From Shigella phage ESh32, in sequence record ON528742: a DNA stretch of 64,000 bases; one strand, given 5' to 3'. Below the pieces are notes generated by a model. That model ran no database searches, was not told where the DNA came from, and worked only from the letters and a program-made list of their open reading frames with translations. The position numbers and the translations under genes were made by a program. Shown in pieces: positions 5,827 to 56,832 of this stretch (its first letter is position 1; each line of letters starts with the position of its first letter).

Positions 5827-5834
5827 TATAAATA
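5827..5834 (+). promoter_or_regulatory. possible late promoter (TATAAATA)
   Basis: exact TATAAATA about 25 nt upstream of ORF 5860. Confidence 0.35.
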
Positions 5835-5859: not shown

Positions 5860-6072
5860 ATGCTACAATTAACTGAAAAGCAACTTCGCAATCTTACTGT
5901 GCTTCAATTAGATGAAATTCGTAGGGAAGTTGGAAATATCATTTCAGCTTTGCGTCGAGAAGTATCACTCAACCAATCTCCGGCAGACTATACTAGATTG
6001 CGAAATTTTGAAAAATACCTTGATAAAGTTAAGGCCGTGCATCGGCATAAAGTAAATACAGGACAAAAATGA
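5860..6072 (+). CDS. hypothetical protein
   Basis: 70-aa ORF; AAAGGGG RBS. Confidence 0.5.
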
Positions 6073-7610: not shown

Positions 7611-7640
7611 GTTTACAAGTTGGCAAGGTTATGGTATAGT
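7611..7640 (+). promoter_or_regulatory. T4-type early promoter
   Basis: gtttacaagttggcaaggttatggtatagt. Confidence 0.55.
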
Positions 7641-7668
7641 AATCTTGTCGACTGCCAAGGAGAAGAGA

Positions 7669-12690: not shown

Positions 12691-12720
12691 GTTTACAAGA
12701 CCGTTCCTCTGTGGTACTAT
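12691..12720 (+). promoter_or_regulatory. T4-type early promoter (cassette copy B)
   Basis: gtttacaagaccgttcctctgtggtactat. Confidence 0.6.
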
Positions 12721-12748
12721 ACAACTATCAACTACGGAGGAACAGAAA

Positions 12749-19314: not shown

Positions 19315-19437
19315 AACCTTGGTGGGCGGCTAGATGGGAAACTGTAGAGCCAGAGCCGGAAGAACCGGTTTACACTGATGAAGAAACAATATATAATGAA
19401 CCAACGATAAATGACTTAATTGATATGGAGATGGGAC

Positions 19438-19923
19438 ATGATTACAGTAGATAAGTGGTTTAGAATTAATCGTGCTGATACAGGGCTGTGTAATTACTGG
19501 CCGGAACTTAGTGCAGGTACTGTCTTTAAAGTTCGTGAACTTGCAAAAGAATGTGAAGATGATATAGAGCCTGATACTGGAATTATTGAAATTGAACTTT
19601 CTGATGGAAAGATTATTAACATCTACGATAAGCCAATTACGTATTGGTGCTTGTGGAATACTGAATCAGTCGAAAATGGCGAAATTGAAGAAGTTGTAGA
19701 GCGAACTAATCAAGTTGTTCAGAAGCCTAAAGCCGATTTTCAAGGTGAACGTATTTCATACGCATTAGCTAAATTAGCTGCACAAGAAAATAACGATGGT
19801 TATGAAGGAAATTTGATGCAAGCTGCGGCAGAATATATTGAATGGCTTGAAACCCAAATTTCTTTTTCTGACCAAAAGATTCGGCAATATAAGCGATTGA
19901 ATCAAATGTTTTACAATACTTGA
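19438..19923 (+). CDS. hypothetical protein (position and 161-aa length consistent with T4 pin, unverified)
   Basis: ORF 19420..19923; ATG at 19438. Confidence 0.45.
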   Translation: MITVDKWFRINRADTGLCNYWPELSAGTVFKVRELAKECEDDIEPDTGIIEIELSDGKIINIYDKPITYWCLWNTESVENGEIEEVVERTNQVVQKPKADFQGERISYALAKLAAQENNDGYEGNLMQAAAEYIEWLETQISFSDQKIRQYKRLNQMFYNT

Positions 19924-19934
19924 AAATAATAAAT

Positions 19935-19959
19935 ACCCTTATCTATTTAAGGTAAGGGT
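19935..19959 (+). promoter_or_regulatory. stem-loop sequestering the gene 49 ribosome-binding site
   Basis: accctta / taagggt 7-bp inverted repeat, 11-nt loop; 3' arm contains the AGGG Shine-Dalgarno 6 nt from the ATG. Confidence 0.55.
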
Positions 19960-19964
19960 TTATT

Positions 19965-20438
19965 ATGTTATTGACTGGCAAATTATATAAAGAAGAAAAA
20001 CAGAAATTTTATGATGCACAAAATGGTAAATGCTTAATTTGCCAACGAGAACTAAATCCTGATGTTCAAGCTAATCACCTCGACCATGACCATGAATTAA
20101 ATGGACCAAAAGCAGGAAAGGTACGTGGATTGCTTTGTAATCTCTGCAATGCCGCAGAAGGTCAAATGAAGCATAAATTTAATCGTTCTGGCTTAAAGGG
20201 ACAAGGTGTTGATTATCTTGAATGGTTAGAAAATTTACTTACTTATTTAAAATCCGATTACACCCAAAATAATATTCACCCTAACTTTGTTGGAGATAAA
20301 TCAAAGGAATTTTCTCGTTTAGGAAAAGAGGAAATGATGGCTGAGATGCTTCAAAGAGGATTTGAATATAATGAATCTGACACCAAAACACAATTAATAG
20401 CTTCATTCAAGAAGCAGCTTAGAAAGAGTTTAAAATGA
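19965..20438 (+). CDS. 49: endonuclease VII (Holliday-junction resolvase)
   Basis: 157 aa; matches remembered T4 gp49 (MLLTGKLYKEEKQKFYDAQNGKCLICQREL...). Confidence 0.9.
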   Translation: MLLTGKLYKEEKQKFYDAQNGKCLICQRELNPDVQANHLDHDHELNGPKAGKVRGLLCNLCNAAEGQMKHKFNRSGLKGQGVDYLEWLENLLTYLKSDYTQNNIHPNFVGDKSKEFSRLGKEEMMAEMLQRGFEYNESDTKTQLIASFKKQLRKSLK

Positions 20439-22252
20439 CAATTGAAAAAGAAATTGAAGGATTGATTCATAAAACTAATAAAGACCTTTTAAACGAGAAT
20501 GCTAATAAAGATTCTCGTGTTTTTCCAACTCAACGGGACCTTATGGCTGGTATTGTGTCTAAACACATTGCCAAAAATATGGTCCCGTCTTTTATTATGA
20601 AAGCGCATGAAAGCGGAATTATCCATTTCCATGATATTGATTATTCCCCTGCTCTTCCATTTACTAATTGCTGTTTAGTAGATTTAAAAGGAATGCTTGA
20701 AAACGGATTTAAGCTAGGTAATGCGCAGATTGAAACTCCTAAATCAATTGGCGTTGCTACTGCAATTATGGCACAAATTACTGCGCAAGTTGCTTCCCAT
20801 CAATATGGCGGAACGACTTTTGCGAATGTAGATAAAGTACTTTCTCCTTATGTTAAACGCACCTATGCAAAACATATTGAGGATGCAGAAAAATGGCAAA
20901 TCGCTGATGCGTTAAATTATGCTCAATCTAAAACAGAAAAAGATGTATACGATGCATTCCAAGCTTATGAATATGAAGTAAATACTCTCTTTAGTTCAAA
21001 CGGACAAACGCCTTTTGTAACAATTACATTTGGTACGGGAACTGACTGGACTGAACGAATGATTCAGAAAGCAATTCTGAAAAATCGTATTAAAGGTCTT
21101 GGTCGTGATGGGATAACTCCTATTTTCCCTAAGCTTGTTATGTTTGTTGAAGAAGGTGTTAATCTTTATAAAGATGATCCGAACTATGATATTAAACAGC
21201 TTGCTCTAGAGTGCGCAAGCAAAAGGATGTATCCTGATATTATTTCAGCTAAGAACAATAAAGCTATCACTGGTTCATCTGTTCCTGTTTCTCCGATGGG
21301 TTGCCGTAGTTTCTTGAGCGTATGGAAAGATTCGACTGGCAATGAAATTCTTGATGGACGTAATAATCTTGGTGTTGTAACACTGAATCTTCCTCGTATC
21401 GCATTAGATTCTTATATTGGAACACAGTTCAATGAACAGAAATTTATCGAATTGTTCAATGAACGAATGGATTTATGTTTTGAAGCTTTGATGTGTAGAA
21501 TTAGTTCCTTAAAAGGAGTTAAAGCGACTGTTGCTCCTATTCTTTACCAAGAAGGTGCATTCGGGGTTCGTCTTAAACCTGATGACGACATAATTGAGTT
21601 ATTTAAAAACGGTAGAAGTTCAGTGTCTTTAGGATACATTGGTATTCATGAATTGAATATTCTTGTCGGTCGTGATATTGGACAAGAAATTTTAACTAAA
21701 ATGAATGCTCGTCTTAAGCAGTGGACCGAAAGAACCGGTTTTGCTTTTAGCTTGTATTCTACTCCTGCTGAAAACCTTTGCTATCGCTTCTGTAAACTTG
21801 ATACTGAAAAATATGGAAGTGTAAAAGATGTTACTGATAAAGGCTGGTACACTAACAGTTTCCACGTTTCAGTAGAAGAAAATGTTACTCCGTTTGAAAA
21901 GATTTCTCGTGAAGCGCCATATCATTTCATTGCGACAGGTGGTCACATTTCTTATGTTGAACTTCCTGATATGAAAAATAACTTAAAAGGTCTTGAGGCT
22001 GTATGGGATTATGCCGCACAACATTTAGATTATTTTGGTGTTAATATGCCAGTGGATAAATGTTTTACATGTGGAAGTACCCATGAAATGACTCCTACTG
22101 AAAACGGATTTGTTTGTTCTATTTGTGGAGAAACTGATCCTAAAAAGATGAACACAATAAGAAGAACATGTGGTTATTTGGGAAATCCGAACGAACGCGG
22201 ATTTAATCTCGGTAAAAATAAAGAAATCATGCATAGGGTTAAACACCAATGA
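20435..22252 (+). CDS. nrdD: anaerobic ribonucleoside-triphosphate reductase, intronless
   Basis: 605 aa; C-terminal Zn ribbon CxxC...CxxC and glycyl-radical motif RRTCGY. Confidence 0.95.
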   Translation: MTIEKEIEGLIHKTNKDLLNENANKDSRVFPTQRDLMAGIVSKHIAKNMVPSFIMKAHESGIIHFHDIDYSPALPFTNCCLVDLKGMLENGFKLGNAQIETPKSIGVATAIMAQITAQVASHQYGGTTFANVDKVLSPYVKRTYAKHIEDAEKWQIADALNYAQSKTEKDVYDAFQAYEYEVNTLFSSNGQTPFVTITFGTGTDWTERMIQKAILKNRIKGLGRDGITPIFPKLVMFVEEGVNLYKDDPNYDIKQLALECASKRMYPDIISAKNNKAITGSSVPVSPMGCRSFLSVWKDSTGNEILDGRNNLGVVTLNLPRIALDSYIGTQFNEQKFIELFNERMDLCFEALMCRISSLKGVKATVAPILYQEGAFGVRLKPDDDIIELFKNGRSSVSLGYIGIHELNILVGRDIGQEILTKMNARLKQWTERTGFAFSLYSTPAENLCYRFCKLDTEKYGSVKDVTDKGWYTNSFHVSVEENVTPFEKISREAPYHFIATGGHISYVELPDMKNNLKGLEAVWDYAAQHLDYFGVNMPVDKCFTCGSTHEMTPTENGFVCSICGETDPKKMNTIRRTCGYLGNPNERGFNLGKNKEIMHRVKHQ

Positions 22253-22719
22253 ATTACGATAGATTTTATCCTTGCGATTTTGTTAATGGCCCTGGTTGCA
22301 GGGTCGTTCTTTTCGTTACAGGTTGTTTGCATAAATGCGAAGGGTGTTATAATAAATCAACATGGAATGCTAGAAATGGTATTCCATTCACTGGTGAAAC
22401 ACTAGAACAATTAATTGAATGTTTGAATAATGATTATATGGAAGGATTGACTATAACCGGAGGAGACCCTCTCTATCCTGATAACCGAGATGTTATTCAC
22501 TCTGTAGTTCAAACTATTAAAAATCTTTATCCCAATAAAAGCATTTGGTTGTGGACAGGATATAAGTTTGAAGATATTAAACAGCTAGAAATGCTTAAAT
22601 ATGTTGATGTTATTATTGATGGGAAGTATGAGAAAAATCTTCCGACCAAAAAGCTGTGGCGAGGATCAGATAATCAGCGACTTTGGTCAAATACCGATGG
22701 GGTGTGGACACATGATTAA
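22249..22719 (+). CDS. nrdG: anaerobic RNR activating enzyme (radical SAM)
   Basis: CLHKCEGC radical-SAM-type Cys cluster; ATGA overlap with nrdD. Confidence 0.9.
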   Translation: MNYDRFYPCDFVNGPGCRVVLFVTGCLHKCEGCYNKSTWNARNGIPFTGETLEQLIECLNNDYMEGLTITGGDPLYPDNRDVIHSVVQTIKNLYPNKSIWLWTGYKFEDIKQLEMLKYVDVIIDGKYEKNLPTKKLWRGSDNQRLWSNTDGVWTHD

Positions 22720-43530: not shown

Positions 43531-43559
43531 TTTACAAGCTGACAAGACTATGGTATAGT
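43530..43559 (+). promoter_or_regulatory. T4-type early promoter
   Basis: gtttacaagctgacaagactatggtatagt. Confidence 0.6.
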
Positions 43560-43587
43560 AGTCTTGTTGGTTAATGAGGAGATTGTT

Positions 43588-47389: not shown

Positions 47390-47397
47390 TATAAATA
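47390..47397 (+). promoter_or_regulatory. late promoter TATAAATA upstream of soc
   Basis: exact TATAAATA about 30 nt upstream of soc ATG. Confidence 0.6.
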
Positions 47398-47427
47398 ATC
47401 ATGTAATTTAAATAAAAGGAGAATTAC

Positions 47428-47673
47428 ATGGCTAGTACTCGCGGTTATGTTAATATCAAAACATTTGAGCAGAAATTAGATGGAAATAAGAAAATTGAAG
47501 GAAAGGAAATTTCAGTAGCTTTCCCTCTTTATTCTGACGTTCACAAAATTTCTGGCGCTCATTACCAGACATTCCCTTCAGAAAAAGCAGCATATACTAC
47601 TGTATATGAAGAAAATCAACGTGCTGCATGGATTGCTGCAAATGAAGATTTGTGGAAAGTAACTGGTGAATAA
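47428..47673 (+). CDS. soc: small outer capsid protein Soc
   Basis: 81 codons MASTRGYVNIKTFEQKLDGNKKIEGKEISVAF...; matches remembered T4 Soc. Confidence 0.85.
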   Translation: MASTRGYVNIKTFEQKLDGNKKIEGKEISVAFPLYSDVHKISGAHYQTFPSEKAAYTTVYEENQRAAWIAANEDLWKVTGE

Positions 47674-55011: not shown

Positions 55012-55041
55012 GTTTACTTCCTCGGTTAGTTGTGGTATTAT
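55012..55041 (+). promoter_or_regulatory. T4-type early promoter
   Basis: aaaagttgtttacttcctcggttagttgtggtattat. Confidence 0.6.
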
Positions 55042-55068
55042 AACACCATAGCTACTGAGGATAATAAA

Positions 55069-56684: not shown

Positions 56685-56714
56685 ATATACATCAGTAGTT
56701 GATTATGGTACTAT
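56685..56714 (+). promoter_or_regulatory. degenerate copy of the early promoter/leader cassette (copy D)
   Basis: ttttttcataaaactatatacatcag ... atggtactat, with -35 degenerated relative to copies A and C. Confidence 0.4.
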
Positions 56715-56832
56715 ATCAATATCAACTACTGATATAGAAAATAATTTGGAGAATAAAATGGAAAATTTGCCAAAGGTGCTGCTACTCTTCTGAAATGCAT
56801 CGCTCCAATGTTCAATTAACGAGGAAATTGTA

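Follow-up and report, generated by a model that had tools for sequence, protein, structure and literature searches.

Translational control of gene 49 of bacteriophage T4, the gene for recombination endonuclease VII, was reportedly described by Barth, Powell, Trupin and Mosig (1988, Genetics 120:329), and the T4 soc leader is said to have been described earlier, by Macdonald, Kutter and Mosig (1984). According to reviews, gene 49 is one of the genes in which a helix on early RNA masks the Shine–Dalgarno (SD) sequence or the AUG, while late RNA leaves it free; they list e, soc and I-TevI with it as genes under such control (PMC3014915; PMC2988022, citing Barth et al. 1988). In T4, the gene 49 initiation region is described as present on early transcripts (PMC3014915). 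The leaders of T4 e (lysozyme), I-TevI, I-TevII, I-TevIII and segB, and of mobE in phage Aeh1, are like that of gene 49 in two respects: early and middle read-through RNA keeps the ribosome-binding site (RBS) sequestered, and the position of a late promoter is such that late RNA is made without the 5′ strand of the helix (PMC3014915; PMC2988022). These are other genes, however, and their hairpin sequences are unrelated to that of gene 49. The translational effect has been shown experimentally for e and I-TevI, and for gene e it was measured as 100-fold (PMC3014915; PMC2988022).

The promoters used late in T4 infection consist of an 8-bp box, TATAAATA, at positions -13 to -6, and have no -35 element (PMC1524935; PMC2988020). 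Of 50 listed T4 late promoters, 32 have a perfect box and 9 have A for T at -13, which is the commonest deviation (PMC2988020). An A/T-rich segment downstream of the box is a tendency and not a strict requirement (PMC2988020).

Here, we describe the leader of gene 49 in Shigella phage ESh32, within a 64,000-nt stretch of DNA that we refer to as the window. We are confident that this leader works as a promoter-dependent translational switch for endonuclease VII. The gene 49 switch is already known—the T4 report dates from 1988, and ESh32 has the same sequence—and the locus therefore carries little weight as a discovery. What we add is a modest extension of the known facts: conservation of the element across the family, with covariation in the stem, and a promoter box that tracks the Aeh1-type consensus.

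The gene 49 locus

The window belongs to a T4-type phage of the genus Tequatrovirus, with ~97% identity to RB14, SfPhi01 and similar phages over 24 kb. In the 1.1 kb around the gene 49 leader, identity to many relatives reaches up to 99.4%. Gene 49 (19965..20438, + strand) encodes a recombination endonuclease VII of 157 aa, and the ORFs neighbouring it are all on the + strand. The pin ORF ends at 19923, immediately upstream of a 41-nt spacer (19924-19964) that separates it from gene 49. On the other side, nrdD (20435-22252, +) overlaps the gene 49 stop codon with its own start (ATGA), and nrdG comes next.

The match to T4 (NC_000866) is exact at every base of the pin–gene 49 spacer and of the first gene 49 codons, and published T4 findings at the site therefore apply directly. 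Spacer, hairpin, SD and AATAAATA box are alike in the two phages; this is the same element. Elsewhere in the locus the two differ. Codon 53 of gene 49 is GTG in T4 and GTA here, and the intron of the T4 nrdD region is missing: nrdD here is a single uninterrupted ORF of 605 aa (region 20435-22719 in the comparison with T4, locus L001), without the group I intron or I-TevII. Nor is mobC present; nrdG follows nrdD directly, unlike the order in T4.

The hairpin over the ribosome-binding site

From the letters alone, an earlier, sequence-only reading of this DNA had proposed a 7-bp stem, ACCCTTA (19935-19941) paired with TAAGGGT (19953-19959), with the SD in its 3′ arm, 6 nt from the ATG. The positions are correct, and the SD, AAGGG (19954-19958), does lie in the 3′ arm with 6 nt between its end and the ATG at 19965. 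The size was underestimated, since RNAfold gives 10 + 7 bp. RNA 19926-19966 folds into a bulged hairpin of 17 bp in all, made up of a 10-bp upper stem, a 2-nt bulge (19933-19934) and seven A-U pairs. In the upper stem the 5′ arm, ACCCUUAUCU (19935..19944), pairs with the 3′ arm, AGGUAAGGGU (19950..19959), which holds AAGGG; the loop between them is AUUUA (19945..19949), and the pairing is also seen as covariation between columns 30-38 and 52-60 of our alignment A1. The lower helix, present in both the minimum-free-energy (MFE) and centroid structures, joins AUAAUAA (19926..19932) to UUAUUAU (19960..19966), and the latter strand extends over the first two letters of the start codon. All of these elements are on the + strand.

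The fold is strong. Around 19920..19970, where the same reading had called for a check of stability, the structure is stable at -15.9 kcal/mol, compared with a mean of -6.0 for shuffled sequences (z = -4.15), and none of 200 shuffles was as stable. Of all 42-nt segments on the + strand of the whole window, 0.19% are as stable as this one. The hairpin is retained in 91-nt and 401-nt contexts, in MFE and centroid structures alike. In early-type RNA the helix engages the SD together with the AU of the AUG, and P(unpaired) over -14..+3 is 0.07. No Rfam family reaches its gathering threshold over the gene 49 leader; the sole match, ohsC_RNA (19895-19966, +), scores 26.7 bits against a gathering value of 50 (E = 0.065), and we took it as chance.

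The late promoter and the predicted late RNA

A late-promoter box of the gp55 type (-13 to -6), AATAAATA, occupies 19928..19935 on the + strand, with its TAAATA core at 19930-19935. It matches the consensus TATAAATA at 7 of 8 positions and has A at -13; since 9 of the 50 T4 sites also have A there (PMC2988020), AATAAATA is the commonest natural variant of the late promoter. A near-consensus box with one mismatch, lying 5′ of the stem, had been picked out from the letters, and it is there. It had also been placed 'inside' the hairpin. This is true of the 5′ strand of the lower helix, in which the box is contained, but not of the 7-bp stem, for box and upper stem overlap by one base: the last A of the box (19935) is the first base of the upper stem.

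We place the late start from the position of the box. By the -13 to -6 convention (PMC1524935), +1 would fall at ~19941 (+), six bases past the last A of the box. RNA from this predicted start would be without 19926-19940, which account for 15 nt of the 17-nt 5′ strand, and AUCU alone would be left of the 5′ arm. When RNA starting at 19941 or 19942 is folded, it reaches -2 kcal/mol (z = +1.5), and its centroid is fully unpaired. The folding model thus bears out the suggestion that a late transcript starting in the stem would be unable to form the hairpin.

The six bases past the box are CCCTTA, three of which are G or C, and the segment downstream of the promoter is therefore not A/T-rich. It contains G/C because the same bases form the stem. 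The late promoter of gene 49 may be weak for this reason, and the composition suggests a trade-off between the promoter and the stability of the stem.

Late-promoter motifs are scarce in the window as a whole. ATAAATA was found 6 times against 40 expected, AATAAATA 3 times against 15, and TATAAATA twice against 10, and we put the depletion of the motif at six- to seven-fold. The copy at gene 49 is no chance match, because this A/T-rich genome avoids the motif. Avoidance of the late core is what one would expect if selection acted to keep spurious late promoters out of this early region.

Conservation among relatives

A search of IMG/VR with gp49 yielded 44 loci, ranging from 100% down to 50% protein identity, with 35 distinct leaders. 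TAAATA is invariant in all 35, while the flanks diverge and -13 may be A, T, G or C. In the four most distant loci, which are Aeh1-like (L041-L044, on contigs of 221-233 kb), the box reads CTAAATA, and CTAAATA is the late-promoter consensus of Aeromonas phage Aeh1 (PMC1524935). The box thus goes with the late-promoter specificity of each lineage, behavior hard to account for were it not a late promoter.

In these relatives, the stem comes directly after the box, and its 3′ arm carries the SD, in the form of AAGGT, GAGGTG or GGGGTG. In all 35 leaders the stem ends no more than 6 nt ahead of the start codon and no further than 3 nt into it; in all 35, too, the predicted late start lies within the 5′ strand, judged by sequence position. 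The sequence of the stem, on the other hand, differs from group to group: ACCCTTATCT / AGGTAAGGGT in one and AGGTTCATCT / AGAGGTGAACCT in another, and further group-specific stems such as ACTCTTATC / GAGGTAAGAGT and AGAGTCAT / ATGACTCT.

RNAalifold recovered only three pairs from the MAFFT alignment because loop lengths vary. We therefore specified the stem pairs by hand and counted them, and checked the result by means that require no alignment. Over nine core pairs, 91.0% of the cells are standard-paired, compared with 71.3% in shuffled data, where none of 500 trials reached 91.0%; once the partner is slid by 1-3 columns, the proportion is 40-54%. (One leader, L045, is out of register in A1 and was counted as unpaired there; it folds on its own.) Six of the nine core pairs have changed on both sides, giving 68 compensatory cells where 21 are expected, and three core positions use four different pair types. 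Our literature search, which was not aimed at such work, found no published comparative analysis of the gene 49 leader, and the covariation appears to be comparative support not shown before.

The alignment-free check agrees. In early-type RNA from all 35 leaders, the initiation region is paired, with a mean dG of -19.8 kcal/mol and a mean P(unpaired) of 0.21 over -14..+3. In the predicted late RNA, taken to start 6 nt past TAAATA, the corresponding means are -3.3 and 0.53. A mean unpaired probability of only ~0.5 for the late initiation region, computed with 30 nt of coding context, is a point against the switch.

The groups also differ in how the stem meets the start codon. In many relatives, namely L012, L013, L016-L021, L024-L030, L032, L033, L039 and L040 (leaders upstream of locus position 1501, or 1489 in L020), the 3′ arm of the hairpin ends on the A of the ATG (e.g. 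GAGGTGAACTATG). The T-even subgroup, which includes the window, has an extra 4-6 nt between the stem and the ATG, mostly TTATT or TTTATT. These bases pair with AATAA of the promoter region to make the lower helix, by which the occluding structure may have been extended in this lineage only.

The probable early/late switch

The course of events that we envisage is as follows. Early in infection, transcripts initiated upstream would read through pin into gene 49. On this RNA, 19926-19966 would be folded and the SD, together with the AU of the AUG, held double-stranded; 30S subunits would bind poorly, and little full-length gp49 would be made. Late in infection, RNA polymerase carrying gp55 would recognize AATAAATA, located just where the 5′ side of the hairpin is encoded, and start at ~19941. 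In the late mRNA, from which 19926-19940 are absent, the RBS would be single-stranded, and gp49 would be translated. Such timing would fit the need to resolve branched DNA for packaging.

Six components of this account were computed directly: the strength of the fold, the identity to T4, the invariance of the core, the covariation, the strand specificity and the loss of structure in late RNA. The exact +1, the source of the early transcript and the size of the translational effect we infer. A consensus scan finds a strong, early-like promoter sequence of the sigma-70 type, TTTACA-17-TATAAT (11 of 12 matches), at 19369..19397 (+), upstream of pin. It is the likely source of early read-through RNA that contains the whole hairpin, and the scan showed no terminator-like sites on the + strand between it and the hairpin. 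Promoters further upstream of 19369 may contribute early read-through RNA as well. In our literature search, we found nothing usable by way of genome-wide maps of T4 transcript starts or terminations. The dual early and late control of T4 endonuclease VII, with which the leader had been said to be consistent, does fit: the spacer is that of T4, and gene 49 is named in the reviews (PMC3014915; PMC2988022).

Alternative explanations

The hairpin might instead be, in the main, an intrinsic (rho-independent) terminator of the early pin unit, gene 49 being silent early for lack of transcription. We consider this unlikely, though less so than the other alternatives. Like an intrinsic terminator, the hairpin is a stem-loop followed by a T-rich run, and both a consensus scan and ARNOLD flag it. 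The scan, which is simple and lax, marks 19935-19959 and the tail TTATTATGTT; ARNOLD is the basis on which the same hairpin was annotated in MK327928 as a 'putative transcriptional terminator', at -10.7 (MK327928.1 43907-43929; positions 837-859 of our locus L047). Termination here need not silence what lies beyond, for nrdD has a middle promoter of its own in the 3′ end of gene 49, and the downstream genes are not strictly dependent on read-through. This promoter-like site (20344-20380, +) comprises a MotA box, TGCTTCA (20347-20353), and a -10 sequence, TATAAT (20367-20372), at 13-bp spacing, with +1 at ~20380. A T4 middle promoter, PnrdD (P49.1), is attributed to Barth et al. in a table that prints its position as '6440', between 43744 and 48465 (PMC2988021); we read this entry as T4 46440, which matches the site in the window.

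The details of the hairpin, however, are not those of an intrinsic terminator. The stem is G+C-poor, only 4 of its 10 pairs being G-C, and the U-tract is interrupted (UUUAUUAU) and unconserved. The tail is coding sequence, AUG UUA UUG, in most relatives (ATGTTATTG; AUGUUAUUG), and the number of Ts in its 8 nt varies from 2 to 6; in distant relatives it is 2-4, and yet the hairpin, the SD in its 3′ arm and the abutment on the AUG all persist there. What is conserved is the placing of the hairpin with respect to RBS and late promoter, which a terminator would not require. Early transcripts that include the gene 49 initiation region, moreover, are described in the reviews (PMC3014915). The annotation in MK327928 is probably a mis-assignment, and for the gene 49 hairpin in general an annotation as terminator is unwarranted, although it stands in at least one GenBank record. 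Partial termination may occur as a secondary effect, a minor attenuation in the T-even subgroup.

Far less probable is that the inverted repeat acts at the level of DNA, as a protein-binding palindrome or as a cruciform, for example a substrate or operator of endonuclease VII itself. The idea has some appeal, for the repeat immediately precedes the gene of an enzyme that cuts cruciforms, and other T4 endonucleases (I-TevI) autoregulate at operators that overlap late promoters (PMC2988022). Against it, the stem contains conserved G·U wobbles—columns 36 and 54 form U-G in 29 of 35 leaders—and these would be A·C mismatches on the opposite strand. The sense fold is more stable than the antisense fold in 34 of 35 leaders (means of -12.4 and -8.1 kcal/mol). 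Because the conserved U·G wobble favours the sense strand, the hairpin acts as sense-strand RNA and not as a DNA palindrome. In addition, the sequence of the stem is free to change so long as pairing persists, whereas one would expect the reverse of a sequence-specific operator, and we reject the palindrome on the wobble and strand-asymmetry data. That a chance hairpin and a chance A/T-rich octamer, functionless both, happen to coincide in an A/T-rich spacer is scarcely credible: short stems and A/T octamers are indeed common in random A/T-rich sequence, and this genome is A/T-rich, but the z-score of -4.15 (0/200 shuffles as stable) and the six- to seven-fold depletion of the motif speak against it, and the comparative data refute it: among relatives down to 50% protein identity, TAAATA does not vary and the stem shows covariation.

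The nested product gp49′

A second product of T4 gene 49, gp49′ (105 aa, 12 kDa), is recorded in AF158101 as starting at an internal GTG: 'internal start demonstrated… specific function is unknown'. The annotated start is codon 53, which in the window (20121..20123, +) is GTA, a synonymous change that yields no start codon. The nested 12-kDa protein, which T4 is able to produce from early transcripts, is therefore without a start codon here. To count the alleles, we compared 31-mers spanning codon 53 with a phage collection, in which GTA occurs in 288 records and GTG in 102, T4, T2 and RB3/5/6 among them; a pattern scan of IMG/VR returned five loci only, all already in our set. More distant relatives mostly have GTT, GTC or ATT at this codon. 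The AF158101 note also states that gp49′ 'has its own promoter'. By eye, the interval from 19965 to 20121 offers only a poor MotA-box-like sequence, AAATGCTTAA (20028-20037), with no properly spaced -10.

The gp49′ start thus seems to be a minority allele and the nested product non-conserved, unlike the hairpin and the late promoter. Loss of the internal GTG from most close relatives argues that gp49′ is inessential to the regulatory design. One can speculate further, and here we are doubtful rather than convinced, that the leader is an ancient module found throughout the family, from T4 to Aeh1-like phages, whose box tracks gp55 specificity and whose sole conserved job is to prevent early synthesis of full-length endonuclease VII. 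Early gp49′ from the internal GUG of T4 would then be a recent, dispensable feature of a minority, and the T-even hairpin might also serve as a partial terminator, or as a stabilizer of the 3′-end of pin mRNA.

Related leaders in the window

The window has three + strand copies of ATAAATA, and each stands 25-30 nt ahead of a start codon (rI.1, gene 49 and soc). The rI.1 copy is a perfect TATAAATA (5827-5834, +), 25 nt upstream of an ATG at 5860 that opens a 70-aa ORF annotated as rI.1 in RB51. Folding predicts no strong hairpin across the RBS of this gene.

The soc leader (47390-47430, +) is closer in design to that of gene 49. A perfect TATAAATA (47390-47397) lies directly 5′ of a hairpin formed by CAUGUAAUU and AAUUACAUG, whose 5′ arm it overlaps. 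As with gene 49, this is a late gene in an early region, its AUG (47428) is buried, and the predicted late +1 (47403) falls within the 5′ arm. The soc hairpin is the weaker of the two (-8.5 kcal/mol, z = -1.8). It differs, too, in layout: the loop holds its SD (AAGGAG), the 3′ arm holds the AUG, and its promoter is a perfect 8-mer.

Six other hairpins on the + strand are very stable, at -18 to -21 kcal/mol: 2601-2642, 7613-7654, 12703-12744, 43533-43574, 55019-55060 and 56691-56732. Most of them have an extended -10-like sequence (TGGTATAAT, TGGTATAGT or TGGTATTAT) in or near the loop, and those at 2601, 12703 and 55019 carry an SD-like purine run (AAGAGGA, GGAGGAA and CTGAGG, respectively) in the 3′ arm. 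These six seem to follow the logic seen at gene 49, a promoter within a hairpin, but with early promoters in place of late ones.
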